Positions 2,306 to 45,166 are shown, counted from the stretch's first letter. The stretch: 64,000 nt of DNA from Candidatus Omnitrophota bacterium (GCA_016928875.1 JAFGJY010000019.1:1996-65995); one strand, 5' to 3'. Translations and numbers: made by a program. The notes: generated from the sequence alone by a model not told the origin.

Positions 2306-3322
2306 CTAATTAAGCAAAGAAGAAATAATACCCCAAATATCGCTTGTTTTACCGAGCCCCAAATTAAATGTGGGCGTTGCCCGTAAACAATCAGTAAAAA
2401 GTGCAAAGGCATGCGCGATCCTTTTAGGGTCTTTTTTATGTACCAATCGAAAGGGCTCGGCCATCATGTAAATTGACCTTAGATTTTGTAGATCCCCCAG
2501 ATCTGCTTTCGTAAGGATGGGCTTATTATTTTTATGTAAAATAAATATCGCCTTTAATGTATTTGGTTGTATTGAAGAAATAATATATGAATCCCTATTG
2601 GATGGTATTCCGTTATCATAAAAAAAAAGGTTCGGGTCACCCACCGTAAAACTATCATTTTTTGTGTTCTGAAATATCCGCGTTGTGTCATCAGATACCT
2701 TGCAGATTTCTGCCTTCTCGCTTACAAGCCGGTCAACGCTCGTCGATTTCCCTGCCCCCGATGGGCCGAGGAATAAAATACTTTTCTGACGATACACAGC
2801 CGATGAGGCATGGATGTGAATATAATTAAGATCGACAGTTAGGCTTGATAGGATCGGATACAATGCGGTCAGTTTATGATCTTCTGAGGGTTGTTTTGAG
2901 TGTATGTTATTGTTATGCGCCGTATCTCCCATTACGTATTGTGCCGCTTGATACACGTGAAATGAACCATCAGTACATTTCATGATAAAATAAGACCGTT
3001 TGTTTTCGCTGTACCACAACTCGATCTCTGTGTTGTGATCTTTTATAAAATTAAACGTCCGAGAAAAAACGCGGTCTGTTCCATCGGGGTCGAACATACG
3101 CCATCGCCCGTCATTATCAGCATTAGTATGCAAGCCCCGCATCAGGTCATTGTCGATCCGGTAAAAATAAACGGTATATTCACGCTGATAAGAATGGATC
3201 GTTACATAAAAAGGCGCTACAGTAATAACACCTTTCTTATCCTTAATTAAATTAGCAGATCGGGGCACCGACCTGTGCGCGCATATGTGCATACGACTAT
3301 CTTCCCCCCTCCCCTCAAGCAA
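2306..3322 (-). CDS. HPr kinase-related P-loop kinase-like protein (RiPP-associated paralog 1)
   Basis: Walker A GPSGAGKST followed by the ..SDD..I block typical of the HprK C-terminal domain (compare GESGVGKSE...VADDRVEI); paralogous to 11437-12393, 41551-42636 and 43240-44346; the true start may be an internal Met. Confidence 0.6.
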   Translation of the reverse strand: MLEGRGEDSRMHICAHRSVPRSANLIKDKKGVITVAPFYVTIHSYQREYTVYFYRIDNDLMRGLHTNADNDGRWRMFDPDGTDRVFSRTFNFIKDHNTEIELWYSENKRSYFIMKCTDGSFHVYQAAQYVMGDTAHNNNIHSKQPSEDHKLTALYPILSSLTVDLNYIHIHASSAVYRQKSILFLGPSGAGKSTSVDRLVSEKAEICKVSDDTTRIFQNTKNDSFTVGDPNLFFYDNGIPSNRDSYIISSIQPNTLKAIFILHKNNKPILTKADLGDLQNLRSIYMMAEPFRLVHKKDPKRIAHAFALFTDCLRATPTFNLGLGKTSDIWGIISSLLN

Positions 3323-3408
3323 TCATTTACTTCAATTGTGATAATTATTATATCAACAATGATCCCACAACAAATCTGGCATGGCCCTACCAAGCATCTT
3401 GTAACGGG

Positions 3409-4485
3409 TCACAGCATTGATCGTTCCTTTATAGCTTCATGTATCGCTTCCGCAACACATCTCTGTCCCAACGCTGTGTAATGTCCATCCTCCAATGTAA
3501 TATCTTCAAAGGCATGTTCTTTAAGAAACCGATCGAACGCCGGGCTGATGTCGAGCCATTGCAAACCGGCTTTCCTGACAGCATTTGACATTACTGCTTT
3601 AACCTGATGGGAAATTCGTTTCCCAACAAAATCGACCCCACTGGGCAAATAGGCAAAAACAACTTCTCGGTCATGCGACAAAGCGAGCGCTCCGATATCA
3701 GCAACGATCGCGTCGATAACAGCTGTTACCGCAACGTTTGTCGGATCAAACTCAGATCTCAGTCGAGCTATCCTTTTTCTCGCGATGAATTCAGCCATTT
3801 TGACCACATGTAACGATCGCAATGACTCAACGATCAATATTGGTATATCCGGCGACAGAAAAAAAAGTGGTTTGCGCGGTGCTTTCGCGACACATACCGT
3901 GTTATCATTGTCGATACCGAGAACTGGTTTCGGATAGCCTAAAAATGTGCCGGATAGCATCCGCTCGATATCATAACAACTGATCGCAATGATCGCCATT
4001 GCGTGTTCAAACTTCTCATTATCGCGCATGTACCACAGATACATCTGATCAAGCCCATATCCTGACATACCCATATTGATCGCCTCGATCTTCGTATCGA
4101 GCTTTTCAAGCTCGACAGGCCATGTTTCATGATCATTAACTCCGAATCCCATGGTGTACGAATCACCGACACACACGACCCTGAATTTACCGGGCGGAAT
4201 AGAACGTGAATATTCCTGCGTTGCCCGTAATCCTTGTTGATTTACCGTAATACCAACGCCACGACGAAAACAATTCGGTTTATGAATACCCGGGATATGC
4301 CTCCATCCAAGCAACGGATCGAACTCAGTGTGGATCCGCTCTCGCACTGTACGCATTGGGCTATGTATGAAATGTGATCCGGCGATCATCACCCCAGCTA
4401 TTCCTTCAATGATGATAAGCATGATGATGACCAACAGTATGGTAATACCGATAAATGTAAGCGATCTCCTCACCCAACGCATCAT
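3409..4485 (-). CDS. SGNH/GDSL-family hydrolase, N-terminal membrane anchor
   Basis: N-terminal TM helix; VVCVGDSYTMGFGV block (GDSx motif). Confidence 0.5.
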   Translation of the reverse strand: MMRWVRRSLTFIGITILLVIIMLIIIEGIAGVMIAGSHFIHSPMRTVRERIHTEFDPLLGWRHIPGIHKPNCFRRGVGITVNQQGLRATQEYSRSIPPGKFRVVCVGDSYTMGFGVNDHETWPVELEKLDTKIEAINMGMSGYGLDQMYLWYMRDNEKFEHAMAIIAISCYDIERMLSGTFLGYPKPVLGIDNDNTVCVAKAPRKPLFFLSPDIPILIVESLRSLHVVKMAEFIARKRIARLRSEFDPTNVAVTAVIDAIVADIGALALSHDREVVFAYLPSGVDFVGKRISHQVKAVMSNAVRKAGLQWLDISPAFDRFLKEHAFEDITLEDGHYTALGQRCVAEAIHEAIKERSML

Positions 4486-5873
4486 CGCACCATCCCCTCT
4501 CGCCTCTCACGCACGATCTTTTCGCAGGCCGTAATGCCGTCAAGCAATGCCTCGTCCATATTACAATACATGAAAATCCCCGCTCGTCCGATACAATGCA
4601 GGTTCTCGAATGATCGCACGTGGTCAAGGACGATGTCGCGGTCAGCGTTGTATCCAATGTGGTACATCGGATACGCGTGAGGATACCGCACAACGAACCC
4701 GGTCACGAGATGCCGCTGGCAATCAAACCCGATCTTGCCCATCTCGGACAATGCATGTTCGATCAGGTCAATATCCCCCATCGACCACAATGCATCGTCG
4801 TCGCCGCAGAAATATTCAAGTCCCAGTGTCGATTTATTCTGGTCGATCACCATCGATGAGCTCCAATTCTTGTAATTCTGGATACGGGCAAGCTTGACCG
4901 ACGGGTCGTGGACATAGATCCACTGGTCAGGAAAGACATCACGCATATTCACGATCACATTGACGACCATGTAATGCCTGAATGAAAGTCGCTTAGACGC
5001 TTCAATGACCTTATCCTCCGGGTGTGGGTCCAATACCTCAGTAAATAGTGGTAACGGGATAGATGATACCAAAGTATCGACCGGCACATAGTGCACAGCA
5101 CACGCTGAGCGGTCAAGCAATGAAATACCGATAACCCGGCCATGATCGTGATGCACGCTTTTAAGTTCGTGACGCAGGTGAAACCGCGCGCCCTGTGCTT
5201 CTGCTGTAACACGCAACCGTTCGCATAATTGTCCGGGGCCTCTGCGAGGATATTTAAAGATCTCGTAAAGGTTTTTCTGTGTCTCTGAAGTATTAGGCCA
5301 TAATGCTTGTTGGAGCGCAACGCGCAGCGAAAGCCCTTCAATACGTTGCCGAGCCCAGTCCTCTGAGATCTCATCACACGCTATGCCCCACAGTTTTTCC
5401 GTGTACCCCTTAAAAAATGTCTCGTACAGCCGTTTTCCGAATTTCGCGCTGACATAATTCTCGAAATTCTTGCATTGAGGGTGTTCGTCCGCACCTCGTG
5501 ACGTGATAGCTATTAAGTAACTTGAAAAACAACGTGCTGCTTCGATGATCCCGAGATTCTTAAGTGTATTGCCAAGCGTCAGTGGATAATTGAAATACCG
5601 ATTGCGGTAATATATCCGCGAAAGCCGACGCACCTCGAGCATGTCCTTACCCATGATCCGCGAACACAGCTCATCGATCGCACGGTGTTTCGTAAGGAAT
5701 CGATGTCCGCCAATGTCGAATAAATACCCATGATGATCGATCGTACGGCACAGTCCCCCCACAGCATCATGGTGCTCGTAAACATCGACAGCGGCACCGC
5801 CCTCGGATGCGGCAAGCGCGCACCCTAACCCTGCCGGCCCGGCACCGATTATCGTAATGTGTTGTTTGTTCAT
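4482..5873 (-). CDS. FAD-dependent oxidoreductase (amine-oxidase/PPO-like Rossmann)
   Basis: N-terminal IIGAGPAGLGCALAAS...GG dinucleotide-binding motif; 463 aa. Confidence 0.6.
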   Translation of the reverse strand: MNKQHITIIGAGPAGLGCALAASEGGAAVDVYEHHDAVGGLCRTIDHHGYLFDIGGHRFLTKHRAIDELCSRIMGKDMLEVRRLSRIYYRNRYFNYPLTLGNTLKNLGIIEAARCFSSYLIAITSRGADEHPQCKNFENYVSAKFGKRLYETFFKGYTEKLWGIACDEISEDWARQRIEGLSLRVALQQALWPNTSETQKNLYEIFKYPRRGPGQLCERLRVTAEAQGARFHLRHELKSVHHDHGRVIGISLLDRSACAVHYVPVDTLVSSIPLPLFTEVLDPHPEDKVIEASKRLSFRHYMVVNVIVNMRDVFPDQWIYVHDPSVKLARIQNYKNWSSSMVIDQNKSTLGLEYFCGDDDALWSMGDIDLIEHALSEMGKIGFDCQRHLVTGFVVRYPHAYPMYHIGYNADRDIVLDHVRSFENLHCIGRAGIFMYCNMDEALLDGITACEKIVRERREGMVR

Positions 5874-6613
5874 AAAGCGGTCTTTTCCTTTGAACGTAAA
5901 TAGTTCACATACGACCCGATCACCGTGTCCGTCTTCCCCTGTTCGCGGATCGCCCCCCGATGGAGCCAGAGAGCGTCGGTACAGTAACGACGAAGCACAT
6001 CGACGTTGTGTGAGGTCATGATTATCGTTTTTCCGGCATCAATAAGGTACATTATAAAAGAATCAAGCCGTGCGGCAAATCCTTCGTCAATATGCGCAAG
6101 CGTCTCATCAAAGAGGTAAATATCCCCCTGAGCTTGCATGAAGATGCTCATGGTTAATTTTTCCTGCTGTCCTATCGATAATTCACGAAGTTGCGCATTT
6201 TTAAGATGCGCCAAGCCACATGATCCGAGTATTTCGTCGATCAATGGGGTCATTGTTTTACGTTCAATGCCGTGTATTGCGGCGATCACATACATATTAT
6301 CTATGACCGGTAGATATTGATAAAATCCAACGCAATACGCGTACAAAGCTCTTATTTGCCCCTCTATTGAAAAAGAACCACTGTCGGGACGATAAATGCC
6401 GCACAATATGCGCAATAATGTCGTCTTCCCGTGACCGCTCTCACCGATAAGGGCAAGCCTCTGCCCTTTGGCCACCTCGAACGTAACATTATTGAGGACG
6501 CGAGAATAGGCATTATCACGCCTCTTTTTGCCCGCGAGAAAAAGCACTTCCAACAAGGTATATTCCCCTGCCGCGATCCTGAAATTCTTAGATATGTTCT
6601 CTGCTCTGATCAT
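5870..6613 (-). CDS. ABC transporter ATP-binding protein (ABC-2/Wzt-TagH-like exporter ATPase)
   Basis: Walker A GESGHGKTT, signature LSIGQQEK, Walker B IYLFDE; translationally coupled to the downstream ABC-2 permease. Confidence 0.8.
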   Translation of the reverse strand: MIRAENISKNFRIAAGEYTLLEVLFLAGKKRRDNAYSRVLNNVTFEVAKGQRLALIGESGHGKTTLLRILCGIYRPDSGSFSIEGQIRALYAYCVGFYQYLPVIDNMYVIAAIHGIERKTMTPLIDEILGSCGLAHLKNAQLRELSIGQQEKLTMSIFMQAQGDIYLFDETLAHIDEGFAARLDSFIMYLIDAGKTIIMTSHNVDVLRRYCTDALWLHRGAIREQGKTDTVIGSYVNYLRSKEKTAL

Positions 6614-9585: not shown

Positions 9586-9984
9586 ATGGACAAACCACGC
9601 CCGAATGCCATCGCCATGATCATTTGCGATACGGTCATTGCCGACAAGAAGACCAACAAACAATCGCTCATCAATATTTTTAACAGTATCGGCGCACAGC
9701 ACGTCCCTTTTGTTCATCAAAGGCTCAATGTATTCATTTCGCTTGTCGATGGGATCGGTGAATATGACGGACGGCTTGTGTGTACGAATATCAGCACTGA
9801 TCAGCAGATCATGTCGATCAACTGCCCGGTGGAGTTTAAACGCAGATTACAAACGATCGAGTTCCACTGTGAGATCTTTGGCCTCAAGTTCCCTTCCTAC
9901 GGGACCTACATTTTTGATTTTTACTGTAATGATGAGATCGTTATTTCGAGGAAATTCGCAGTCAATGAGATAAAACCAAAATAG
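9586..9984 (+). CDS. hypothetical protein
   Basis: 132-aa ORF with a strong AAGGAG RBS; no recognisable motifs; one of only two plus-strand genes inside the 2-46 kb cluster (the other is the 39766..40959 nucleotidyltransferase). Confidence 0.5.
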   Translation: MDKPRPNAIAMIICDTVIADKKTNKQSLINIFNSIGAQHVPFVHQRLNVFISLVDGIGEYDGRLVCTNISTDQQIMSINCPVEFKRRLQTIEFHCEIFGLKFPSYGTYIFDFYCNDEIVISRKFAVNEIKPK

Positions 9985-10035
9985 CGAGATGATCATTTCT
10001 GATCCGGGTTGAACACGTTGCATAAGAAATGATAT

Positions 10036-10275
10036 TTAAATGCCTGTATACGTCAGTGGCGTGCCGCCGGCCGTGCAATTGTGCGGATCTAACCCTGGGT
10101 TGCAATTGCCCCAATAAAAAGTACTTCCCGATTTGCAACCGAACGGAGAGGCGATCACCGTGCCATTAAAACACTCAGCGCTTGCGTTGTTGCCATTACC
10201 GCAAGCAGCTGCATCGACATAACTGGGAGCAGCTTCAAGCATAATTTTTGGCGTTGCATATTGTTTTTTATTCAT
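10036..10275 (-). CDS. putative RiPP precursor peptide P2 (KK-Y-x-x-P-x-I leader family)
   Basis: 79 aa MNKKQYATPKIMLE..; core AACGNGNNASAECFNGTVIASPFGCKSGSTFYWGNCNPGLDPHNCTAGGTP.. with 6 Cys. Confidence 0.65.
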   Translation of the reverse strand: MNKKQYATPKIMLEAAPSYVDAAACGNGNNASAECFNGTVIASPFGCKSGSTFYWGNCNPGLDPHNCTAGGTPLTYTGI

Positions 10276-10342
10276 ATTTTCTTCTTCACGGTGACTTGAT
10301 TATACGGCATTATGTCATGTGTCTCAAGAAATATATTACCGG

Positions 10343-10441
10343 AACTCTATTTGCGAGCTAAAGACACGTTTAATGTTTTCGGATGCAGCTGTTAACTCTT
10401 GCGTTCCGATCGTCTCAACGGTCCGCAGGTCTACGATCAGC
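10343..10441. repeat. about 100-bp remnant copy (~95% identity) of the 3' end of the ABC exporter gene 33025..34791
   Basis: Near-identical to 33022-33130 (aactctatYtgcgagctaaagacacg...ggtctacgatcagca), which encodes the ABC C-terminus ...VETIGAQELTAASENFKRVFSSQIEF; here it lies intergenic between the rSAM gene and precursor P2. Confidence 0.8.
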
Positions 10442-10529
10442 AAAGATGGATTTACAATTTAAAGGATTTGCTTTGCACATCGCGAGATCCGTTGTGAAAT
10501 GTTAATTAGCTTATGAATAATTAAAAAGG

Positions 10530-11432
10530 TCAATACCCGGCAAACAATCCTCGTAGGTTCTCATGCTGGATCATTTTAGCAGGTCCTCTTTGGATACTTT
10601 TTACGAAGCAATTACAATCAAGAACTGAATAAGAATATTTCCTCCTTAATGCCTCTTCCATGATATCGTACACTAATCCATTATCGTACAAGTGCATTTC
10701 GTGGCATTGATAGATCTCAGCATCAGGTAATATTTTTGCGATTTTGCGGCGATTATATTGAGTTACTTCTATTTCACCTATATTTACATGATCTACGCCG
10801 ATATCCTCAATAATGGGCAACATCTCGAAGAGCTTTGTTTTATGCGGAGGCCATGCCGGTGTTTCAACGGTTAGCGCTTTAAAATACTTCCTGGCTAGGG
10901 ATACGTTTTTGTAAACGTCCTTTGAGAAATTTGATGCACCGAGATGAAACCGTATTTCATCAATGCCAAGGTCTCGGAGCTCCTCAAGTATATCTTTGGT
11001 CGCCAAAACTCCGTTTGTGTAAAGGTAAAACCACGGGCTTCCCTTAGTCTCCTTTTTGATATCATTGTACACCTTCATATATTCTCTAATGGTCTTCATG
11101 TACAAAAGTGGCTCACCGCCTCCGCTAAAACTGATCGAAGTTGGGCGATAATGAGGCTCACGCGATTCCCGTATTATTGACGTAATCGTATTGAGCAAGT
11201 CGATCTTTCCAGGTTCTTTCATTTTGTAAAAACAATAACAGCAATTGAGATTACACTTTGCTCCCGTAAGTAGATTGCGATGATATCTATCATAGACGAA
11301 ACAACTGCCGCACCCGGGAGAGATTTTTCCAATATGCACGCAATGTCCACTGGCGTGATATTGAAGCTCTTTGATGGCTTCCTGTCGCTTGAACTTTCTT
11401 GTGTATGCTTCTTGTATAGATAATAGTTTCAT
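10530..11432 (-). CDS. radical SAM protein (no SPASM domain seen)
   Basis: CNLNCCYC (CxxxCxxC) plus SFSGGGEPLL glycine motif; extra N-terminal Cys pair (GCGSCF); start taken at MKLLSIQEAY to avoid overlap with the kinase. Confidence 0.65.
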   Translation of the reverse strand: MKLLSIQEAYTRKFKRQEAIKELQYHASGHCVHIGKISPGCGSCFVYDRYHRNLLTGAKCNLNCCYCFYKMKEPGKIDLLNTITSIIRESREPHYRPTSISFSGGGEPLLYMKTIREYMKVYNDIKKETKGSPWFYLYTNGVLATKDILEELRDLGIDEIRFHLGASNFSKDVYKNVSLARKYFKALTVETPAWPPHKTKLFEMLPIIEDIGVDHVNIGEIEVTQYNRRKIAKILPDAEIYQCHEMHLYDNGLVYDIMEEALRRKYSYSVLDCNCFVKSIQRGPAKMIQHENLRGLFAGY

Positions 11433-11436
11433 CTCT

Positions 11437-15215: not shown

Positions 15216-15261
15216 ACATTTAAAACACCGTATTCGACATGAAATGTAATTACATGATCTG

Positions 15262-30820: not shown

Positions 30821-30823
30821 ATT

Positions 30824-33015: not shown

Positions 33016-33024
33016 AATATAATA

Positions 33025-34791: not shown

Positions 34792-34817
34792 GGGCGTGTT
34801 ATGTACTTATGTGGTTT

Positions 34818-36455
34818 TTAAACATTTAACCTTGAAAATGTAAAGAGGTCATAGACCTTGAATGTCTTTTTTGCCGTTATAGCATAATTGCCATGGTGCT
34901 GCAACAGATCGAGCGGGAGAGCCTGGGAAGCTGTCATATAATAAAATGTCTCTACGCCGCGAGCATTGAACGTAGATAACATATCCGCAAACTCATCATT
35001 GTTCCGGGCAACAAGCATGCGGCGGTCAAAATACTTCAGCCCCGCGTGTTCGAACAATGAGTTCCTGGTAAAGACGATAATATCGCCGTCATCGGTAAAC
35101 TCTTCTATGAACGTTGTCCGTTCCGCATTGAGTTGCTTGAAATATAAGATATCGCAACGGAACCGAAATACAACGCATCCGATGGTCGCAATGCACAAAA
35201 AGATAAAGACCACGAATATGTTCTTTCTTTTAATAATATCTTCGAATCGTATGCCGATCGCGATCATAACAAAGGGGATCATGGGCAGAAGATAACGCAC
35301 ATTATTATCCGGGTTCCTATAAAATAATATTCCGACCAATGTCATGAAGATAATGAAAACGATGAAGAATAGCTTCAATAGCGTGTTCACATCGTACGCC
35401 CCGAAACGTTCTTGATCAGGTCCTTCCGCTTTGACGGCATAAAACCACAACAAGAAGATACTTAATGGATATTCGATGAACACGCGATCGGTCACTGACT
35501 CTTGCAGCAAAAGGACGATATATCCGCTCCACAGAAGTACGCATAAAAGATCGAATGATTGATCGCTCGATGATCTTCTTGAAGTCATTGATAACCAGAT
35601 CCATGTGCCTATAAATGCGATAACGACCACGAGTTTATCGAATTGGATAAAACGCGGCGGCGGATTGCACGTGACATGCAGTCCGAAGATCGTGCCGTAA
35701 AGCCATTGGTTAACTGCGCAATGTAGCCCAACAACAAAGCCCGTGCCCGCAACGATCGCTGCAACCTCCCGCCAGCGTTTCTTTAGAAGGAAGTATAGTC
35801 CCACCGGCCCCAAGAACGCCACGATAAGGCCGTAACATTCGGTCCGGAAGAAGATCGTCAGCGCTATGCATGCAGAACCGGCTACCATATAACGTATTTT
35901 CTTTGGATCATCATAAACAGAGCGTGTAAAGAGATACAGGCCCGTAACAAGAAAAGCAAGCAAAGGCACGTGGTCCCAAAACGTGATCGCGTATAAACTG
36001 GTCGGGTTTACACACACATAGATAATGGTCAGAATAAGGGCGTACTTCGGCTTGAGCAGGCGCATTATTTTATAAAAAAATAAAGCCCCGACCCAGAACG
36101 CGAGTAGGGGGAAAAACAGAACACACCGCTCCCCTAAAAACGGATAGAGAAAACTTGTCATAAAGGGCAATAATACTTGGTAGGAACTTATCAATCGGCC
36201 GTTATGCAATAACCATTTTCGGTGTGTACCTATGAATGTATATTCGGGATCCAGGTCTTTGGCAGGATAAACAAGCGACAACGACTTCCAATCATTGATG
36301 CAAAAACTTCGCATTTGGATGTATTTTATGCCGAAATCATCGGCATATAATCCGTTCGGGACGAAATGGTAACAGAGGACCAGAACGATCCCCAGCAACA
36401 CGAAGAACAACGTTGCATACGCACCCGCATTGAGTGCACCAGTTCTCTCTCTCAT
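34818..36455 (-). CDS. polytopic membrane protein, GT-C-fold glycosyltransferase-like (ArnT/PMT-like)
   Basis: 545 aa with more than 10 TM helices; DD motif (LYADDFGIKY) in the first extracytoplasmic loop as in GT-C enzymes; weak. Confidence 0.35.
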   Translation of the reverse strand: MRERTGALNAGAYATLFFVLLGIVLVLCYHFVPNGLYADDFGIKYIQMRSFCINDWKSLSLVYPAKDLDPEYTFIGTHRKWLLHNGRLISSYQVLLPFMTSFLYPFLGERCVLFFPLLAFWVGALFFYKIMRLLKPKYALILTIIYVCVNPTSLYAITFWDHVPLLAFLVTGLYLFTRSVYDDPKKIRYMVAGSACIALTIFFRTECYGLIVAFLGPVGLYFLLKKRWREVAAIVAGTGFVVGLHCAVNQWLYGTIFGLHVTCNPPPRFIQFDKLVVVIAFIGTWIWLSMTSRRSSSDQSFDLLCVLLWSGYIVLLLQESVTDRVFIEYPLSIFLLWFYAVKAEGPDQERFGAYDVNTLLKLFFIVFIIFMTLVGILFYRNPDNNVRYLLPMIPFVMIAIGIRFEDIIKRKNIFVVFIFLCIATIGCVVFRFRCDILYFKQLNAERTTFIEEFTDDGDIIVFTRNSLFEHAGLKYFDRRMLVARNNDEFADMLSTFNARGVETFYYMTASQALPLDLLQHHGNYAITAKKTFKVYDLFTFSRLNV

Positions 36456-36493
36456 AGAAAGGCATTACTCCAGCGTTTCAGGCTTCCCTGTTT

Positions 36494-36802
36494 TTATGAT
36501 TCGATCAGAAAACCGCTTTGTTTTAACTTTTCAATATGCTCATCAAGGTCTTTCTTTGCCTCGGCTTCACCGACCTCGTATTCATCAAGGATATTCTTTA
36601 AAAGAGTATCGATCGTTACCGGCTGTTCACATCTGTCCCAAATAAACCGTGCTGTTTCATTGATCACGATAAAATTCGCCGTATCCGCATTAAAGAGGAA
36701 TGTCTCATCCCCCTCATCACGCGTCACCACGTTTTCCGCATGTTTTAACTGCTTCTCTGACATGATCGTATTTCCTCCCTCAGCCTTTGTGGGGACAGAC
36801 AC
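36494..36802 (-). CDS. PqqD-family RiPP recognition element
   Basis: 102 aa; FLFNADTANFIVINETARFIWDRCEQPVTIDTLL matches the PqqD core. Confidence 0.7.
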   Translation of the reverse strand: MSVPTKAEGGNTIMSEKQLKHAENVVTRDEGDETFLFNADTANFIVINETARFIWDRCEQPVTIDTLLKNILDEYEVGEAEAKKDLDEHIEKLKQSGFLIES

Positions 36803-36826
36803 CAGTGTCTGTCCATAATGATTTAT

Positions 36827-37294
36827 TTATTCTACTTCACATTGTGCGTGGTCTGTCTTCCTGAGCCGCGCATGCGACAATTTTCTATGCAACCACTTAA
36901 ACGGCGACAATGTCTTGATCCGCGCATATATTTTAGAATTATTCAAGAAAACGAACAATTTCTGTGCCCGCTTTATAAATCTTCCACTATCTTCGATCGG
37001 TATCTCATCTGTGCCGCGGTATGCCGCGATGACCTTCCCTTTTATCTTATCATACGGGACACGGAAGGCATCGGCTTGCACCAGTGTCGAATCCGGTTTT
37101 GTCATCAGTGAACCATCGGGGTTTATCGACAATATCCTATGGGTTATCAACTTCGAATTATCACTGTTTTCAAAGACGACAATATCGCCTATTGCGAACG
37201 TCACATAGTCGGCTTTCTTGATCAACAGCGCATCGCCGATCTTAAGCAGCGGCTCCATGCTGTTACCGATAAGTTTGGCGGACATGTATTTCAT
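36827..37294 (-). CDS. S26-family signal peptidase I-like serine peptidase
   Basis: 155 aa; canonical GNSMEP nucleophile motif, then GDIVVFE and ITHRIL blocks. Confidence 0.65.
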   Translation of the reverse strand: MKYMSAKLIGNSMEPLLKIGDALLIKKADYVTFAIGDIVVFENSDNSKLITHRILSINPDGSLMTKPDSTLVQADAFRVPYDKIKGKVIAAYRGTDEIPIEDSGRFIKRAQKLFVFLNNSKIYARIKTLSPFKWLHRKLSHARLRKTDHAQCEVE

Positions 37295-37360
37295 GGTGAC
37301 ATCTCTGCTTGGCTATGATTACTGCTCATCGTTGGTAGACGCGGCAACTTCGGATACAAT

Positions 37361-37436
37361 GTCTTTCCCGCGAAAGCGGGAATCAAGGTACTTTTATGCC
37401 TAGATCTTGGATAAGCCTTCGGCTTTCCGGGACGAC
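37361..37436. repeat. REP-like nested-hairpin intergenic repeat, family A
   Basis: gtctttcccgcgaaagcgggaa...ggataagccttcggctttccgggacgac; the same architecture occurs at about seven intergenic sites between 47 and 60 kb. Confidence 0.7.
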
Positions 37437-37477
37437 ACTAGGACCGGCCATGGCAATTACGACAATAAACAAGGAAC

Positions 37478-38581
37478 TTAGATACTGACCTTTTTGTATT
37501 TAAACTTCTCCGGAAACAGGCCCAACCTATCCGCTTCCTCGCAAAAATAGAACGGAGCCAAAAGGTCGCCATGGGAATAAAAGGCCTCTGCCCTGCATTT
37601 GCCGAGACAAAAGTTCTTGAACATACACTCCCCGCAGATGCCTTGCAGCTTGCTCGGGAGGTCACTGCGCAATGTTTTCAGTATTGCAGAATCGTGCCAT
37701 ATTTCTTTTAAAGAGCGTTCATGGATCGTGCCCAATAAAAGTTCAGGCGTACTTGCCCCGATACCGCAGATCGACATGCGGCCATCGGCCAAAACCCCGA
37801 GAATATTAAATATTCCACATCGCCCTTTATGCCTGCTTTTGGCCGGGAAGAAAGAGAACACGGGTGGTATGTCGAAGATCATGGCTACCTTTATCTGAGG
37901 CTGGACTTCTTCATCGATCACTTTTTTAATATCCAAATAATCCTTGACCGAAAGAACATCGTTTGAAGCGGCCAAACTTTTTCCGCGTTCAATATCGTTG
38001 ATACAATTGAGCTTCAGACTTGCCGCACCCAGCGACTGCGCCAGACGCGCCGTCTCTAAAATATATCGGACGTTAGGCCGGTAAAGAGACATGATCACCT
38101 GCGGCCTAAATCCCCGCTCGGCACATATTTTTACGCCGCGGCATGCTTTGTCGAATGAACCCGGCACCCCGCGCAACGCTTCGTGTATCTCCGCCGTAGG
38201 ACCGTCGATGCTTATCGAAATATGCGAAAGCTTCATCTCTTTAAAGAAATCTCCCGTCTCATCATCGATCAAAATGCCGTTGGTTTCCATAGTCATATAC
38301 AGGTTCTTTTCTTTGGCATACTTCATGAGCGGTCGTGTATGCAGACTTAAGAGCGGTTCTCCGCCGGTAAATTTTATGCTTTGCAGACCGAGCGGGATGG
38401 CTTGATCGATTATGGTGGTAAAGGTTTCGTACGGAGCTTCCTCCGGCGCTGTCGTTGCATCGAGATATTCAGGGGCTATCCAGCAATGTTTGCACGCACA
38501 ATTACAATACGACGTCATGTAAAAATATAACATGCCAAGTGGCGGAGTATTTGGTGCAAGGTCAAGGACACGTTCGTTCAT
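37478..38581 (-). CDS. radical SAM/SPASM domain peptide-maturase-like protein
   Basis: CNCACKHC, FTGGEPLL, SPASM CGECMFKNFCLGKC. Confidence 0.8.
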   Translation of the reverse strand: MNERVLDLAPNTPPLGMLYFYMTSYCNCACKHCWIAPEYLDATTAPEEAPYETFTTIIDQAIPLGLQSIKFTGGEPLLSLHTRPLMKYAKEKNLYMTMETNGILIDDETGDFFKEMKLSHISISIDGPTAEIHEALRGVPGSFDKACRGVKICAERGFRPQVIMSLYRPNVRYILETARLAQSLGAASLKLNCINDIERGKSLAASNDVLSVKDYLDIKKVIDEEVQPQIKVAMIFDIPPVFSFFPAKSRHKGRCGIFNILGVLADGRMSICGIGASTPELLLGTIHERSLKEIWHDSAILKTLRSDLPSKLQGICGECMFKNFCLGKCRAEAFYSHGDLLAPFYFCEEADRLGLFPEKFKYKKVSI

Positions 38582-39627
38582 AATGTGTTAAAGACCTCCT
38601 CTTTAATGCAATATAATTTTTTGTTCATGAACTTCCCTGGATTATGATATGGTTGACAGCGATGGCCAAGATAACAGAGCCGCAAATATTCACAGTTCAC
38701 ACACTCAGCTATCTCTTCGGCTTGTAGGTAAGCAGGTTCACGGAATTGATTCATCACCGGTGAATTGAGCCAAATATCTTTAAGCGAGGTTTCATAAAGG
38801 TCGCCGGCCACACAATCCCAGATTATCTCGCACGGGACGACTTTCCCGTCGGGACGGATGGCACACTGTTTCATCGCTGCCCCGCAGGGACTGACCATGA
38901 GCGGAAATTCAAATGTTGGCGGTGCCTCGCGTAATTTATCCAAGATCTCGACTTGCGTCATAACAGAACCCGTTATTGCATTTTTATATTTTTTGTTCAG
39001 TTCACGTACAACATCGAGCGATTGAAAGGTTTCTGCCGGCGTCATCAGTATTTGGTCGGAATAACAGGCGGCATTGCCGACATAGCACACATTGTTGAAA
39101 CGAATACTGTTAATGCCAAGCTCGCACGAAAGTTTATACATATTTTCAATATCGTGGTAATTGAATTTGGTCAGGATCGCAGACAGCGTAATGCCCCTCT
39201 TTATGCGTTTGATCTCTTCGATACCGCGGATCACCTTATCGAACGAACCCTGGCCGCGAAACGCGTCATGTACTTCGGCGCACGATCCGTCAATGCTGAT
39301 GCAATATGATCTGATCTTCGAACGTGCAAGCCAATCAGCTTCTTCACGATCGATCAATGTTCCGTTAGTGTTCACGCTTATCGTCAGCGGACATTTCCCC
39401 AGTTCCTCGGCAACAAAATGAAAATGTTCGGACATGAATGGCTCACCGCCGAATATCGAAACACTGAAGATCTTCATATCGCGTATCTGATGAATGATAT
39501 TGAGGAGCATTTCACGAGAAAATTCACGGCAGCCTGTCGTGCTGCTCGCCAGACAGTGCTTACAGGCTAAATTACACTTATTGGTTATACCGAAACTGAT
39601 ATTGTGCGGCGCGCTTAAAGTCTTCAT
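38578..39627 (-). CDS. radical SAM/SPASM domain peptide-maturase-like protein
   Basis: CNLACKHC, IFGGEPFM, SPASM CVNCEYLRLCYLGHRC; translationally coupled to 37478-38581. Confidence 0.8.
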   Translation of the reverse strand: MKTLSAPHNISFGITNKCNLACKHCLASSTTGCREFSREMLLNIIHQIRDMKIFSVSIFGGEPFMSEHFHFVAEELGKCPLTISVNTNGTLIDREEADWLARSKIRSYCISIDGSCAEVHDAFRGQGSFDKVIRGIEEIKRIKRGITLSAILTKFNYHDIENMYKLSCELGINSIRFNNVCYVGNAACYSDQILMTPAETFQSLDVVRELNKKYKNAITGSVMTQVEILDKLREAPPTFEFPLMVSPCGAAMKQCAIRPDGKVVPCEIIWDCVAGDLYETSLKDIWLNSPVMNQFREPAYLQAEEIAECVNCEYLRLCYLGHRCQPYHNPGKFMNKKLYCIKEEVFNTL

Positions 39628-39765
39628 ATGTAAATATTTCCATTCATGGGAGCGAGTGCGGTTTATATTTTAGATAATTTACGTTGGAAGAAACTACTAT
39701 ATTATAATATGATTGAACAATCAATAATTAATTTGCTAATCATTTATATTGAATAAGTTAGCGCT

Positions 39766-40959
39766 ATGGTACCATACCGCAAAGACCTGACCGAAAAACT
39801 TCTGATGTTCATCATGAAACATGATGCGCGCGATCTTATTTCTGCAGACGCCCTTGAGCATACTGACTGGAGCACATTCCTGCCGTTCGTGCGCTATCAC
39901 GGTTTACATAGCATGTTGTACCCGCTGCTCAAGCCCTTTCGTGAGCATATCCCCCATGTGCATTACGCTAGTTTTCATAAATCGTATTTTCAAGCGATCG
40001 CATTCAATGTGCGGGCAAAAGGATCATTTATGAAGATCAAAGATCTTTTTGACGGGAACGGTATCCAACTCGTACCGCTTAAAGGTATGGCGCTCATCTT
40101 CGATATTTATTCCTCGCATCCCTCGCGGCCAATGTGCGACCTTGATATCCTGATCACAGATAGTGATTACGAACGAGCGAAGGATCTTCTTAAGCAGATC
40201 GGATACATTAAAAATGTCTCTGATGATAGTGAACACTACTGGCGCAATGAACAGATGCACGTGAGCTTTGGTCCGAGAGACGGTACATTACCATTGTGTA
40301 TACTTGAGATGCACTGGCAGCTTGATTACACGCGCAAGTATCCCCTTTTGTCTGATCTCTGGCACCGCGTCCGGACTATCCCTGATGAAGGCGATGAAAT
40401 TGTGACCCTCTCGCCGGAAGATACACTGTTCTCGCTGGCACTACATCAGCGAAGGTTTGGTGCGCCACTCCAACTTAAGTATGCGTTTGATACGGCGTTG
40501 CTCTTTAAAAAGTATGAGAATAGTATTGATATTGATTATCTTATAAGTGAAGGCCGCAGGTCGCGGATACGATCGGCCCTGTATGCCCTCGTCAAGCAAT
40601 GTTCTTTTTTTTACTCTGATACGTCGGTTGAAAGATTACTAAAGGAATTACACATCTCAACGCTACGCAAGAACTGCCTGGACGCAATGATCAAAAAGAA
40701 CACATTTGAAATACAGAACAACACAAAGCAGCTGTTTGCCACCCTGCATCTGTTCCTCTTTGATAGCTGGAACGAACCATTATTCTACATGCTGAACATA
40801 CCCTATGTGCAGTTCTGCAAATATTACGGTCTTCTCCCCGGGCAGAAATATTCCCGCTTCTTGTACTCTCTCCGTTATTTTTACTATGGAATTGGGCTGA
40901 TACAATTAGGTGTGCAAAAGCTGTGTTTTTTACTACGGGGCGAAGCGGAGAAAAGATGA
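39766..40959 (+). CDS. nucleotidyltransferase-fold family protein (RiPP-cluster associated)
   Basis: PLKGMALIFDIY...CDLDILI matches the pol-beta NTase G[SG]x(n)DxD motif; the family is known next to HprK-like kinases in lasso-peptide clusters. Confidence 0.5.
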   Translation: MVPYRKDLTEKLLMFIMKHDARDLISADALEHTDWSTFLPFVRYHGLHSMLYPLLKPFREHIPHVHYASFHKSYFQAIAFNVRAKGSFMKIKDLFDGNGIQLVPLKGMALIFDIYSSHPSRPMCDLDILITDSDYERAKDLLKQIGYIKNVSDDSEHYWRNEQMHVSFGPRDGTLPLCILEMHWQLDYTRKYPLLSDLWHRVRTIPDEGDEIVTLSPEDTLFSLALHQRRFGAPLQLKYAFDTALLFKKYENSIDIDYLISEGRRSRIRSALYALVKQCSFFYSDTSVERLLKELHISTLRKNCLDAMIKKNTFEIQNNTKQLFATLHLFLFDSWNEPLFYMLNIPYVQFCKYYGLLPGQKYSRFLYSLRYFYYGIGLIQLGVQKLCFLLRGEAEKR

Positions 40960-40980
40960 ACGATCGTTCCCCTGCGTTCT

Positions 40981-41210
40981 TTACAAAGGAAATAGTAACG
41001 GGCCGGCCCCGCCGATACAATCATTAGGCGAAGGACCTGCCGTACAGCTACCAAAAGAGTATCCTACCTCACAAAACCCAGGATGCATGATCGAATTATT
41101 AGTGTTCCATGCGCCGCTCGCAGCATTACCGTGGCCACATGCTAAACATGAGCCGGATACCCTTGGTTATATTCAAAAACTTGTGGCGCAGTATAATGTT
41201 TTTTCGATAT
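40981..41210 (-). pseudogene. decayed precursor gene of the KK-Y-x-x-P-x-I family (start lost, 1-nt frameshift)
   Basis: The minus strand reads ..SKKHYTAPQVFEYNQGYPAHV* then, in the +1 frame, CGHGNAASGAWNTNNSIMHPGFCEVGYSFGSCTAGPSPNDCIGG..*; the DNA aligns to P3 (41228-41473) with ATG changed to TCG and a 1-nt deletion. Confidence 0.6.
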
Positions 41211-41227
41211 ACAATTTGCTGACTGTG

Positions 41228-41473
41228 TTATATCGCGGGCCATACTTGCGGCGAATCACCGGCGGTGCAATTATTAGGGCTACCGCCGGAAGTACAATTC
41301 CCGAACGAATACCCTATGGTGCAATAGCCGGGATAGGCGATTGAATTCCCAATACTGCATGTACCGCTCGCTGTACTCCCCAGGCCACAAGCATATGCAT
41401 CTGCCGGATGCCCTTGGTTATATTCTATGATCTGTGGTGGGCTATAATCTTTTTTATTTTTCATTATTTCCAA
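41228..41473 (-). CDS. putative RiPP precursor peptide P3 (KK-Y-x-x-P-x-I leader family)
   Basis: 81 aa MEIMKNKKDYSPPQIIEY..; core with 6 Cys, ..NCTAGDSPQVWPAI. Confidence 0.65.
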   Translation of the reverse strand: MEIMKNKKDYSPPQIIEYNQGHPADAYACGLGSTASGTCSIGNSIAYPGYCTIGYSFGNCTSGGSPNNCTAGDSPQVWPAI

Positions 41474-41550
41474 ATCTATGATTTTATACTTGTGTAAGAA
41501 TTATAACACATTAGGTATGATTCGCGGATATTTTTGCTGTTTAAAAGCCA

Positions 41551-42636
41551 TTACCGATCTCCATGATCAAGTTTGTTTACTAGATCGTTAAAGTCATCGC
41601 TGAGATCTGCTTTTAACGGGAATTTAAGTTCATAAGAAGGAATACCTGTAGCAATGTCGGCTAGCATATTAAAATAGAAGCTATTACTCTCACGGTCGGC
41701 ATTCATTGCCATAAGCTGTAATGGTTGATCGTAAAAAAGGAAACGACTGAGAGCATCACGCACATCGATGGGCGTTGCTTTTAAAACATCTGATTTCTCA
41801 AGGAAGAATATATATTTGATCGGAAATGAGCGTGATACCATGTCGGCGCTCATACTTCCCTGCTTGTACTCGTTCCACCATGGCGTTGCAACCGCAGAAA
41901 ATCCACCCTGTTCATCGGTCACAATGATACTGAGATCGTCACTCAGACCCCTGTACTTTTTAAGTGTTTTTACGATCGTTGATTTCCCATCGCCTCCCTT
42001 GCCTAAAAATACATACCCTGCCCCCTCACGAGCACACGAAGCCGCATGCATAATGACACCTTTTCGAGCGGCCATAAGTGATGTCCTGAATATCTCGTAC
42101 AGCGCTTGAACGCGAACTAAATGCTGTACTTTTATCTCAAGCGGGTCTGCTTCACCAATGATCAAGCGGAACATGAACCCGCACCGCTGTTGCTTGCAAA
42201 AAAAGCTCAACACTGCGCCGGACGAGACAACCGTCGCATCTTCAGTCTTTACTCCATCCAGAAGTACCTCAAAAAGCTGTGGGTGTGCGTCAAAATACGC
42301 CGCAAAAAAGAATTTAAACGTATCCTCGAGGCAATCTTTGGGATTATTGTACAGTAATACGATCTTCTTCTTAAGCAGCGTGATAAACTCGTGATACTTG
42401 GCTGGTAATCTTTCCCGTCGCGCTTCCACTAAATATTCTATGTAATAATTATAGTCGTTCTCTTCTTCTTGGACCACAGGATACTGTGCGAACGGTGTGT
42501 AGTCTAATATCATGCCTATTTCAGCCTTGCGGCTCACATCAAAATGGATGTTAACGCAGATGCCTGCTATACATACTCTCACCCTATCGAACTGCCGTTT
42601 TTTGAATAGACTATCATGCGATATCATACCATTCAT
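41551..42636 (-). CDS. HPr kinase-related P-loop kinase-like protein (paralog 3)
   Basis: VIMHAASCAREGAGYVFLGKGGDGKSTIV..LSDDLSIIV. Confidence 0.6.
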   Translation of the reverse strand: MNGMISHDSLFKKRQFDRVRVCIAGICVNIHFDVSRKAEIGMILDYTPFAQYPVVQEEENDYNYYIEYLVEARRERLPAKYHEFITLLKKKIVLLYNNPKDCLEDTFKFFFAAYFDAHPQLFEVLLDGVKTEDATVVSSGAVLSFFCKQQRCGFMFRLIIGEADPLEIKVQHLVRVQALYEIFRTSLMAARKGVIMHAASCAREGAGYVFLGKGGDGKSTIVKTLKKYRGLSDDLSIIVTDEQGGFSAVATPWWNEYKQGSMSADMVSRSFPIKYIFFLEKSDVLKATPIDVRDALSRFLFYDQPLQLMAMNADRESNSFYFNMLADIATGIPSYELKFPLKADLSDDFNDLVNKLDHGDR

Positions 42637-42838
42637 ATATGCTCAATCATGTCTTCCATGTTTTTTAAAAGTATTCTATATTGCAATGGACATTAAATTA
42701 TTTTTTATTAACGCCGGCATATCGTACATACTTACATTATGTGGTGAGAATTCCTGACCGGGAACAAAAGAAGGGATTCATAGGCTCATCTTGTGTGAAT
42801 TATCTGCAGCTTCTTGAATAATAACACTTAGAATAAAC

Positions 42839-43087
42839 TCAGTAAACGACGTTGCTACCAAAAGAACAATAGCCTGTTGCAGCAGTGCCGGCCTCGCACA
42901 GCGAAGGGGCGAATCCTGTGTTACATATGTTATTAGCAGCCGTACCAGTACCGCAAGCAGTGCTAGCAGCGCCACCGGAGTTGCACACCCCAATGACGCC
43001 TGATCCGGGATCACAGAGGCCAACACCTTCAGAATCAGAGGGGGGATTAAAAAATGCTATTTGTGGTTTTAAATATGGTCGCTTCAT
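42839..43087 (-). CDS. putative RiPP precursor peptide P4 (KK-Y-x-x-P-x-I leader family)
   Basis: 82 aa MKRPYLKPQIAFF..; core with 7 Cys in a G/S/T/A-rich context. Confidence 0.65.
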   Translation of the reverse strand: MKRPYLKPQIAFFNPPSDSEGVGLCDPGSGVIGVCNSGGAASTACGTGTAANNICNTGFAPSLCEAGTAATGYCSFGSNVVY

Positions 43088-43239
43088 ATATTCAATTCAT
43101 TGTATATTCCTAGAAATGCTTACTCAAATGTTTGTATTATAAATAGTTATAATAATATGTCAATGTATCTTTAACTACGCGCCCGCATTTTTTGAACGCC
43201 TGCTGATTACGGATTACGGGATCTGTTATCTGGGTATAT

Positions 43240-44346
43240 TTACCGTAAATTCCCCTTTATTTTCTCAAAGGCATCTGACAGGTCTTCGGTAATTGGGAAT
43301 TCAAGCTCGTAACACGCACATCGTCGTGTCAGCGTTCGTAAGAAATCAAAATAAAAAGCAATGCTCTTTTTATCTGTGGAAATTCCCTGAAAACGAAATG
43401 GCGAGTCATCATAAAGAAAGCGCCTCATCGCATCGCTTCGGGAAAGAGGGATCATTGCCAGTTTCGTTGCTTTTTTAAGAAAGAAAACATGGCGCAATAC
43501 GTTATCAATGCAAACTTCATGTGCCCTACCCTTACGGGCAACCACATCATCGTTATTCCACAACGATGGAGCGAGCATAAAATCTCCCTTATCCACAGGA
43601 TTTAATACTATGCTTACGTCATCGCTTAAGACATGATATCCCTTGAGACTGTTAATGATCGTCGACTTCCCTCCTCCTCCTCTGCCCATAAAGAGGTTCG
43701 CATCATTACTTTTAAGATTGGATGCACCATGGAGCATAATGCCTTTTCTCTCACCTGCAAGCACGGTTCTTGTGATCATATATAACATTTCCATGCCGGC
43801 TCGACGGTCATAATGGTCAGTCCCCTCATCGGCAGGTGGCACAACAGACAACACGATCCCCACTTTTGCACGTGGGCAGTAGAATACTATCATGATCGAC
43901 GATACGCACATATAGCAATCGCCGTCCAGCAGGATCTTTTTGATCACGTTGAAAATATGGGGGTATTGATCAAAATACGAGGCAAGGTACTGACGCATTA
44001 GTGAATCTCCCTTGATGCATCTATTTCGGTCAAAGTACACAATATTCTTATCGAGGTACGTTAAGATCGTACGATAGTCCGAGTTCACATTGCTAACGTC
44101 AGATCGACGCAGAAAACACAGGTAATAGTCCGCACCGCTTACTACATATCTTGTAGGATCGCTCTGTGTATTCGTACATGCTTCTTTAATAAACGACTGC
44201 TCAACGAAACCATTGTCGTTAGGATCGAATCGTAAGGTTGCATGGATGTACCCCATCTTAAAATACAAGCTAGATGTGAATGTGCTATTGAGAAGCTCTT
44301 TATTCAAACTAGTATCCTTACCGTTAATGATATTTGCATTCATCAT
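43240..44346 (-). CDS. HPr kinase-related P-loop kinase-like protein (paralog 4)
   Basis: GIMLHGASNLKSNDANLFMGRGGGGKSTII..LSDDVSIVL. Confidence 0.6.
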   Translation of the reverse strand: MMNANIINGKDTSLNKELLNSTFTSSLYFKMGYIHATLRFDPNDNGFVEQSFIKEACTNTQSDPTRYVVSGADYYLCFLRRSDVSNVNSDYRTILTYLDKNIVYFDRNRCIKGDSLMRQYLASYFDQYPHIFNVIKKILLDGDCYMCVSSIMIVFYCPRAKVGIVLSVVPPADEGTDHYDRRAGMEMLYMITRTVLAGERKGIMLHGASNLKSNDANLFMGRGGGGKSTIINSLKGYHVLSDDVSIVLNPVDKGDFMLAPSLWNNDDVVARKGRAHEVCIDNVLRHVFFLKKATKLAMIPLSRSDAMRRFLYDDSPFRFQGISTDKKSIAFYFDFLRTLTRRCACYELEFPITEDLSDAFEKIKGNLR

Positions 44347-44457
44347 GTTATTTTCTGCAAAAGGACATAACGAATACTATCAGTAAAGATGAGTTTTGCC
44401 CCGATCTTATTTAATATGAATTCAAATGTCCTTATGGTATAAAATGAAATATGCGTT

Positions 44458-45166
44458 TCATCGCGTATATACTACTATTTCAGGAAATGATTGTCGAACG
44501 CTGTTCTTACCATCCTCCTGATAAGGTGTTTTGTACGCATAGGGGTTCCCGGCATTGATACGTACCAATGACATATCATCAGCAAGACAACAATTCGGCT
44601 CGAGAGTTCGAGCGACCGTTGGTTTACCCTGGTCCGCTGGCCCCCAAAGCAAAGTGTGCTTTACCATTTATTACAACCGCTGCCCCATGCATAAGCAACA
44701 GGTCTATTGTGTGGCATGCAACAAGTCTTACCATATCTTTTATTGTTGCCGAATAGAGACATTCACAGTTCATGGAGTTTTGAGATCGCAGTCGGTATAG
44801 TGGCATCATTCCGGAAGGTATGTGATACGTTATGAATTGATCAGGGTAAACATGCACAGCCTAGGTATTGTCGTTGACAGTGTATACCCGTTGTGCTGGG
44901 TTACGTGCGGCGAGGAGATCATAGCGATCGTTCAAAGAAACACTGGTATTGTTCCTTGCGCATAAAATAACTTCTTCTAGCCTGTCAAATGAGAACGCTT
45001 CATTATTGAAACAATCGATATCCTCGATCCTTACCGTAATGTATTGGTCATGGTCGCCAAAATGATCATTTCTTACATAAAGTGCACGGTGCCGTGCATC
45101 ATGCTCATTCAAATTTATGAGAAAGCTATCATGACTGGAAGAAAAAGCAATACCGGCTGATGACAA
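44458..45166 (-). pseudogene. HprK-like kinase pseudogene (in-frame TAG at 44861-44863 plus a frameshift; C-terminally truncated)
   Basis: ORFs 44861-45166 and 44624-44857 share one frame, separated only by TAG; the second ends ..LLLMHGAAVVINGKAHFALGASGPG (P-loop). The third ORF, 44458-44667, in a shifted frame, continues GKPTVARTLE..LADDMSLV, homologous to the GKST..LSDD..I block. Confidence 0.6.

Follow-up and report, generated by a model that had tools for sequence, protein, structure and literature searches.

Why should a single bacterial locus carry several divergent copies of a kinase-like P-loop protein among several small genes for Cys/Gly-rich peptides? The question is raised by a 64,000-nucleotide (nt) stretch of DNA from a Candidatus Omnitrophota bacterium (GCA_016928875.1 JAFGJY010000019.1:1996-65995), hereafter the window, which holds four kinase-like genes, K1 to K4, a kinase-like pseudogene, K5-pseudo, five intact precursor-like genes, P1 to P5, and a degenerate one, P3' (Table 1). 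We propose that they form a divergent and expanded SynChlorMet (SCM)-type locus for peptides made on the ribosome and modified after translation (RiPPs) in this Candidatus Omnitrophica metagenome-assembled genome (MAG), and we give this reading as a whole, including the peptide-kinase role inferred for the P-loop proteins, an even chance of being right. The locus is an unusually multiplied form of a known but unstudied cassette and represents no new kind of system.

ScmC-like proteins and the SynChlorMet cassette

A first-pass annotation of the window had listed four paralogous open reading frames (ORFs) sharing a His, Walker A and Asp-Asp block. They exist exactly as listed, all on the minus strand, and the block is common to them: HIHASS..FLGPSGAGKST..VSDD in K1, THAIG..FAGKSGDGKTT..LNDD in K2, MHAAS..FLGKGGDGKST..LSDD in K3, and LHGAS..FMGRGGGGKST..LSDD in K4. 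At pairwise identities of 16-33%, the H, G, GK, T and DD positions are invariant in the alignment. The fifth, pseudogenic copy is also real, but it spans 44458-45166 and is thus longer than the 44861-45166 piece first listed. It is disrupted by an in-frame TAG (44861-44863) and a +1 frameshift in Walker A (between GASGPG and KPT, at ~44626), and is truncated after ~235 residues; once reconstructed, it keeps the His, Walker A and Asp-Asp elements seen in K1-K4. A profile of 90 ScmC-type homologs, from which the window sequences were excluded, scores K3 at 206 bits, K2 at 160, K4 at 156, K1 at 75 and the reconstructed pseudogene at 60, and found no further kinase copy in the six-frame translation of the window.

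The proposal that these proteins are HprK-related P-loop kinases stands at the level of the fold, and fails at that of the family, the best-matching one being ScmC (TIGR04249/PF27840) instead of the HprK-related families A and B. Pfam Hpr_kinase_C (PF07475) matches K2 alone, with 11.9 bits (E=0.16) against a gathering threshold of 33.3, and gives no match for K1, K3, K4 or the 44861-45166 piece of the pseudogene. Family A (TIGR04352) reaches 24.3 bits with K3 and 24.9 with K4, and family B (TIGR04355) 22.5 bits with K2, against cut-offs of 200. With the ScmC model TIGR04249 (cut-off 125), K3 scores 69.3 bits (E=3e-19), K4 32.6, K2 17.9 and K1 14.1 (E=0.023), and the precomputed Pfam assignment PF27840 'ScmC' is found on K2, K3, K4 and all listed homologs except two. 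The A and B families are sister families of ScmC and likewise PqqD-associated (TIGR04353), and they cross-match it: among 94 aligned homologs, curated models match as ScmC in 91, HprK-related A in 70, HprK-related B in 31, HPr(Ser) kinase in 11 and phosphoenolpyruvate carboxykinase (PEPCK) in six. Residues H197, G217, K218, T220 and D233 (K3 numbering) are invariant in the 94 sequences. An exhaustive HMMER search with K3 retrieved 2,702 representatives at E<=1e-3 and three only at <=1e-30, namely K3 itself, a protein from a JGI metagenome contig (P0002), and a 367-aa protein that is probably K4 by length and identity; a word-indexed homolog search with K3 alone returned only K3.

AlphaFold models have mean confidence (pLDDT) values of 71.5 for K3, with most of the C-terminal domain at ~90, and 88.9 for K2. 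Structure alignment with PEPCK extends over 194-239 residues, whereas full-length HprK/P aligns over 132-150 only, and the PDB profile match to HprK is marginal (E=1e-4 over 73 residues). Since PEPCK aligns over up to 239 of the 318 residues of K2, covering both domains, the two-domain architecture is PEPCK-like throughout, with a C-terminal half of the HprK type. The C-terminal domain has the HprK/PEPCK-type P-loop fold, and the N-terminal one is the more divergent among the paralogs (15-21% identity, compared with 20-35% for the C-terminal domain). According to models and profiles, the kinase-like proteins are thus divergent members of the ScmC family, composed of a variable, β-rich N-terminal domain and a C-terminal P-loop domain of PEP-carboxykinase/HprK fold. 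They differ from HprK/P (PF07475, TIGR00679) and PEPCKs by their marginal sequence similarity, by an N-terminal domain that aligns with PEPCK and not with the HprK N-terminal domain, and by a context that suggests neither HPr and the phosphotransferase system nor gluconeogenesis.

The content of the locus bears out the earlier siting of these genes in a RiPP locus with PqqD and radical SAM/SPASM genes. Genes for ScmF-like, ScmE-like and PqqD proteins lie within 6 kb of the K3/K4/K5 array, K1 and K2 being outside such a cassette, and a single PqqD/ScmE/ScmF set is present for the whole array. SCM models are the best-scoring curated models for K3, K4, both radical SAM/SPASM genes and P3, and the order of ScmC then precursor, with PqqD and radical SAM/SPASM neighbours, is that of SCM loci elsewhere. 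Because these models match, albeit below their cut-offs, we regard the array as a divergent SCM cassette in which only components A (precursor) and C have been multiplied. The PqqD protein itself scores higher with lasso PqqD models than with TIGR04248. Compared with other loci, which possess one or two copies, this one has five ScmC (one dead) and six precursors (one dead); its precursors measure 65-85 aa against the 49 positions of the ScmA model, and it holds extra genes for NTP_transf_5, a methyltransferase, S24/S26-like peptidases, glycosyltransferases and ABC exporters.

The five intact precursor-like peptides share the leader M-x-KK-x-Y-x-x-P-x-I, followed by a core rich in Cys, Gly, Ser and Thr; a weak match to a lasso leader model (lasso_cyano) was obtained with the leader of P5. 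As the first-pass annotation had it, the kinase copies stand beside a precursor or one gene away. The gap from kinase to downstream precursor is 54 nt for K1-P1, 77 nt for K3-P3 and 152 nt for K4-P4, a radical SAM gene separates K2 and P2, P5 lies upstream and not downstream of K5-pseudo, and P3' has no kinase of its own. Each of the six precursor-like ORFs, the degenerate one included, is thus within one gene of a kinase copy. In 200,000 gene-order shuffles, the placement of all six no more than two gene positions from a kinase copy had p ~0.002, a crude value, since members of a tandem array are not independent events. A search with the precursor alignment retrieved the window's own P1, P2, P3 and P5 and no outside sequence.

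With regard to ScmC loci elsewhere, the P0002 contig, which harbours the closest relative of K3 and K4, carries methyltransferase, ScmC, a 78-aa ORF (known by place and length) and, on the opposite strand, NTP_transf_5, an order that corresponds to a single-copy version of 39766-46189 in the window. A second contig (P0004) shows the canonical cassette, with two radical SAM/SPASM genes, PqqD, ScmC, a 75-aa ORF and a further radical SAM/SPASM gene. Loci L008 and L009 consist of PqqD, ScmC, precursor and radical SAM/SPASM, with no glycosyltransferases nearby, and their precursor, MDRKKYIPPKLVSL...CMDGFSPSCHPDPCWGGSGAEGCSGG, has the leader MDRKKYIPPKL; in L006, a precursor (MKKTKKKIVRKKYSAPTVIRL...) follows the PqqD gene. 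The PqqD and ScmC genes overlap by 4 nt in L008-L011 and on the P0004 contig, and NTP_transf_5 is found with ScmC on the P0002 contig as well as in L002, L003 and L010/L011. In unrelated metagenomes, too, ScmC stands ahead of a precursor with a KKYxxPx(I/L) leader. This conserved adjacency makes the link between them look functional, and it is the strongest evidence that ScmC acts with the peptide. A scan of genome contigs with the homolog profile found a single locus, from Aminicenantes, and two profile scans of metagenome contigs, one with P0002, yielded no confirmed locus. In this Aminicenantes MAG (JAOUKO010000107.1, 6658-8097; L005), a ScmC-like and a radical SAM domain are fused in one protein of 479 aa, whose gene comes after a PqqD gene and a lasso-B2/transglutaminase-like ORF.

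Peptide kinase or maturase accessory

In lasso peptide pathways, the C-terminal Ser of the precursor is the target of two HprK homologs, PadeK and PsmK, which phosphorylate it, and PsmN, an 'uncharacterised NTP transferase', adds a hexose to the phosphate (PMC8498205, PMC6993621). Kinases of the PadeK/PsmK type are the only ones of the HprK superfamily among the phosphorylated RiPPs listed in PMC12639078. By analogy, each ScmC protein would use ATP to phosphorylate a hydroxyl in the core of the neighbouring precursor, and its divergent N-terminal domain would contact and recognise the variable core. Reading of the shared leader and formation of Cys cross-links would fall to the single PqqD protein together with the one ScmE/F radical SAM/SPASM pair. 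Decoration of the phosphate by NTP_transf_5 and the many glycosyltransferases may follow, in the manner of PsmK/PsmN in pseudomycoidin, and processing and export of the product would be left to the S24/S26-like peptidases and ABC transporters.

The resemblance to the lasso kinases PadeK, ThcoK and PsmK lies in a RiPP cluster that combines a PqqD-type RiPP recognition element (RRE) with a P-loop protein of the HprK superfamily. The Asp-Asp pair kept in the window proteins is essential in PsmK, whose D158A/D159A mutant is inactive (PMC6993621), and paeninodin and pseudomycoidin share with the window an adjoining nucleotidyltransferase gene and a leader of YxxPx(I/L) type (PMC8498205, PMC6993621). 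The window differs from lasso clusters in that the partner enzymes are radical SAM/SPASM proteins and the precursors do not end in Ser. Among the 40 ORFs scanned in 3409-46189, excluding the ABC genes 30824-32587 and 33025-34791, there is neither a lasso cyclase (Asn-synthetase-like) nor a B2 protease.

Several observations weigh against a peptide kinase in an SCM-type locus. The characterised RiPP kinases of HprK fold target a C-terminal Ser, and the precursors here lack one, P1-P5 ending in L, I, I, Y and V, respectively; nor is any Ser or Thr invariant across the five cores. All curated cut-offs are missed (in bits, ScmC 69 of 125, ScmE 166 of 400, ScmF 337 of 400 and ScmA 18.6 of 35), so that membership is claimed at the superfamily or divergent-family level. 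The equivalence of NTP_transf_5 and PsmN is putative. Literature searches returned nothing relevant on ScmC or SynChlorMet, and no report combining HPr kinase, radical SAM and PqqD. The Aminicenantes fusion retains an intact Walker A and reads LSDF in place of LSDD, having lost the second Asp. Finally, the fusion of ScmC to radical SAM in that protein and their translational coupling in L003 and L004 fit an accessory role equally well.

Such a role defines the first alternative, in which ScmC would not be a peptide kinase but bind ATP as an accessory or scaffold subunit of the radical SAM/SPASM maturases, for instance to deliver the precursor or clamp it, and would have been multiplied to fit different cores. 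We hold this to be unlikely. It would accommodate the fixed place of ScmC in a four-gene cassette with two radical SAM/SPASM enzymes and a PqqD protein, the degraded DD of the fusion, and the overlaps of 1-4 nt between K2-type genes and the flanking radical SAM genes. However, catalysis seems to have been retained, since His, Walker A Lys and first Asp do not vary among 94 diverse homologs; the characterised members of the fold group (HprK/P, PEPCK, PadeK/PsmK) are all phosphotransferases; and no radical SAM gene is found within six genes of K1. A kinase acting on the peptide remains our preferred reading of ScmC.

Possible kinase-precursor pairs and the K2 system

The first-pass annotation went further and regarded each kinase as the substrate-specific partner of the adjacent precursor, the pairs having been co-duplicated and phosphorylation serving leader recognition or activation. 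This stronger version is unlikely. Counts are indeed near 1:1, with five kinase and six precursor copies for one PqqD/ScmE/ScmF set; the strong divergence of the kinases, above all in their N-terminal domain, is expected if each of them tracks a different core; and the single-copy arrangement of methyltransferase, ScmC, ORF and NTP_transf_5 on the P0002 contig implies that local duplication enlarged the array. On the other side, the similarity matrices of kinases and precursors are incongruent, as judged from identities and a rough neighbour-joining tree with few taxa and saturated branches. The closest kinases, K3 and K4, are 33% identical, and P3 and P4 only 28%; conversely, P2, P3 and P5 are 43-51% alike (43-53% with P3'), and the neighbouring K2, K3 and K5-pseudo 20-24%. 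The C-terminal domain of K4 is 53% identical to that of the foreign P0002 protein, compared with 35% to K3, and the tree pairs K4 with the former, K1 and K5-pseudo being orphan long branches. The sole DNA-level repeat in the array is the leader of P3 and P3' (78% identity over 58 nt), a recent duplication of the precursor only. Co-duplication of pairs is therefore not supported. We read the array as an old one still in flux, in which one kinase copy and one precursor copy have died, and not as pairs that were recently duplicated together.

The upstream regions of the precursors bear on the same point. The three best sigma70-like sites in the regions scanned are those immediately 5' of P4 (a perfect TTGACA-16-TATAAT at 43163-43136, 12/12 positions), P5 (45518-45490, 11/12) and P2 (10327-10299, 11/12), which suggests that the precursors have their own promoters; the total of promoter-like sites shows no excess over shuffled sequence. 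Upstream of P3, an extended -10 element (TGTTATAAT) is present at ~41513-41505. With a strong promoter-like site beside a dead kinase, P5 looks expressible, which runs counter to strict pairs. As for leader recognition, the YxxPxI leader motif is of the type bound by PqqD-like RREs, as in lasso leaders, and a kinase is therefore not needed for it.

The K2-P2 pair is a further exception. In the neighbour-joining tree, K2 nests among its Omnitrophica orthologs (51-66% identity), which are also sandwiched between radical SAM genes, with flanking overlaps of 1-4 nt. Along with PqqD and several radical SAM genes, the loci of these orthologs (L002-L004) hold an arginase-like protein of FlmR/OhkR type, NTP_transf_5, an S24 peptidase and U32 genes. 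In them, the precursors are of the type MPKKPKFKPxITxVKLNPEQAVLxCxC...SS and present in one to four copies per locus, giving kinase:precursor ratios of 1:4, 1:1 and 2:4. In L004, three precursors (938-1480, 4688-5359 and 5502-6092) are fused to the C-terminus of PqqD (PqqD-...KKRAYKTPEIAKVKMQPEQAVLACC...), and two ScmC-like genes (2519-3736 and 10001-10933) have radical SAM genes on both sides of each. As the window possesses a PEQAVL-type precursor of the same family at 25494-25745 (leader KKPKFKPEITRVKLNPEQAVLAC; MAKKPKFKPEITRVKLNPEQAVLACTC...GTASS), K2 can be assigned to this second system, and the peptide is likely the cognate of the K2 cluster. As far as its ortholog loci tell, K2 is therefore the exception among the kinases and part of a second RiPP system, conserved in Omnitrophica, whose components are PEQAVL-leader precursors, PqqD, an arginase-like protein and radical SAM/U32 modules. 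Between the K2-coupled radical SAM gene and P2 sits a remnant (10336-10443) of the 3' end of an ABC gene, ~105 nt long, ~92% identical to 33025-33135 of the ABC gene 33025-34791 and translating to ...LLIVDLRTVETIGTQELTAASENIKRVFSSQIEFR. Judging by its sequence, it is the scar of a recent rearrangement that put P2 beside K2 and its radical SAM partner. The K2-P2 'pair' appears here as a by-product of rearrangement, a caution against deriving function from adjacency alone.

A bolder extension of the peptide-kinase reading, which we consider quite doubtful, would make ScmC a core-specific 'reader-writer', each paralog phosphorylating, and so priming for phospho-glycosylation by NTP_transf_5 and the glycosyltransferases, only the neighbouring precursor, and the shared PqqD/radical SAM-SPASM set serving a small library of peptides that differ from one another and are both cross-linked and phospho-glycosylated. 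If true, the SCM cassette would gain its first function, and a kinase of HprK fold would for the first time be placed in a radical SAM RiPP pathway. It is very improbable that the substrate phosphorylated by the ScmC-like proteins is not a peptide but, for instance, a sugar, a lipid-linked glycan or, as with PEPCK, a small acid, in the service of the glycosyltransferase-rich surroundings and with peptide adjacency incidental: GT2/GT4, Wzy_C, carbamoyltransferase and NTP_transf_5 genes are abundant nearby in the window, L002, L003 and L006, and the best whole-protein fold match is to PEPCK, a small-molecule enzyme, but in L008/L009 ScmC directly precedes the precursor with no glycosyltransferase in the vicinity, and the 4-nt overlap with PqqD recurs in L008-L011 and on the P0004 contig.

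Surroundings of the locus and significance

Nearly all genes of the window are carried by the minus strand. Inside the cluster, the plus strand holds only two, namely, NTP_transf_5 (39766-40959) and a DUF6941 gene (9586-9984) located between GT2 genes and P2. GC content is ~0.40-0.45 within the cluster and rises to ~0.50 past 46 kb. Over 31551-46384, pseudogene included, an independent Logan assembly (run SRR13394437) departs from the window sequence at only 4 of 14,834 bases.

Table 1. Main features of the window and its borders, by position (aa, amino acids)
Feature	Position	Strand	Remarks
P1	2054-2251	(-)	65 aa; leader KKEYISPQI, Cys/Gly-rich core
K1	2306-3322	(-)	ScmC-like P-loop paralog, the most divergent; 338 aa with putative TTG start, true start uncertain
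P2	10036-10275	(-)	precursor-like, 79 aa
ABC gene 3'-end remnant	10336-10443	(-)	see text
Radical SAM gene coupled to K2	10530-11477	(-)	Pfam Radical_SAM; likely ATG at 11432, 4 nt after K2 stop
K2	11437-12393	(-)	ScmC-family protein of conserved Omnitrophica lineage; locus tag JW938_01530 in the Candidatus Omnitrophica bacterium MAG
Second-system precursor	25494-25745	(-)	family as in L002-L004
Second-system PqqD protein	25757-26044	(-)	
UPF0489/TPR arginase-like protein	26058-27545	(-)	FlmR/OhkR peptide-arginase family
ABC transporter gene	30824-32587		exporter
Second small signal-peptidase-I-like (S24/S26) protein	32584-33015	(-)	between the two ABC exporters
ABC transporter gene	33025-34791		exporter
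PqqD-family peptide chaperone (ScmD-like)	36494-36802	(-)	Pfam PqqD E=4e-15; TIGR04248 E=7e-6
Signal-peptidase-I-like (S24/S26) protein	36827-37294	(-)	candidate leader peptidase; TIGR02228 E=4e-13
ScmF-like radical SAM/SPASM enzyme	37478-38581	(-)	TIGR04251, 337 bits, cut-off 400
ScmE-like radical SAM/SPASM enzyme	38578-39627	(-)	TIGR04250 best match, 166 bits, cut-off 400
NTP_transf_5 nucleotidyltransferase	39766-40959	(+)	convergent with array; PF14907 E=1e-39
P3'	40981-41211	(-)	degenerate sixth copy directly after P3; frameshift, no start codon; absent from the first-pass list
P3	41228-41473	(-)	78 aa, ATG at 41464; TIGR04252 ScmA E=0.0017, 18.6 bits, under cut-off 35
K3	41551-42636	(-)	ScmC-like paralog, 361 aa; locus tag JW938_01670 in the same MAG
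P4	42839-43087	(-)	precursor-like, 82 aa
K4	43240-44346	(-)	ScmC-like paralog, 368 aa; TIGR04249 E=5e-8; precomputed PF27840
K5-pseudo	44458-45166	(-)	ScmC-like pseudogene; TAG, frameshift, truncation
P5	45230-45487	(-)	77 aa, ATG at 45463; upstream of K5-pseudo
Methyltransferase	45530-46189	(-)	head of array; Pfam Methyltransf_23
tRNA-Asp(GTC) and tRNA-Val(TAC)	46571-46740	(-)	just beyond methyltransferase; upstream border of cluster

The two S24/S26-like proteins are candidate leader peptidases of SCM-type systems, and a similar protein of 163 aa follows ScmC in L010/L011. A membrane glycosyltransferase-like protein is also encoded downstream of the K5-pseudo/K4/K3 array. Next to K2, the minus-strand interval 12415-25353 contains three radical SAM/SPASM-like genes (15262, 21791 and 24262), five peptidase-U32-like or U32-partner genes (12415, 14160, 16303, 20036 and 22861), two ferredoxin-like genes (13285 and 21073), and genes for a B12-binding (18504) and a MiaB-like (17202) radical SAM protein. 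U32 proteins are unusual in a RiPP cluster; elsewhere, they are involved in O2-independent hydroxylation. Peptide arginases of the FlmR/OhkR family convert Arg into ornithine (PMC12703449).

The SCM cassette and the ScmC family have stood for years in curated databases without an assigned chemistry, and HprK-fold RiPP kinases have so far been known from lasso peptides only. Cys/Gly-rich peptides with a KKYxxPx(I/L) leader are now tied to ScmC across unrelated metagenomes. Furthermore, the locus offers a natural experiment, in which divergent ScmC copies and shared-leader precursors with different cores are combined with one PqqD/radical SAM-SPASM set. Its main value is that of a tractable system for giving ScmC a function, with regard both to a possible activity as a peptide kinase and to its specificity for the core.

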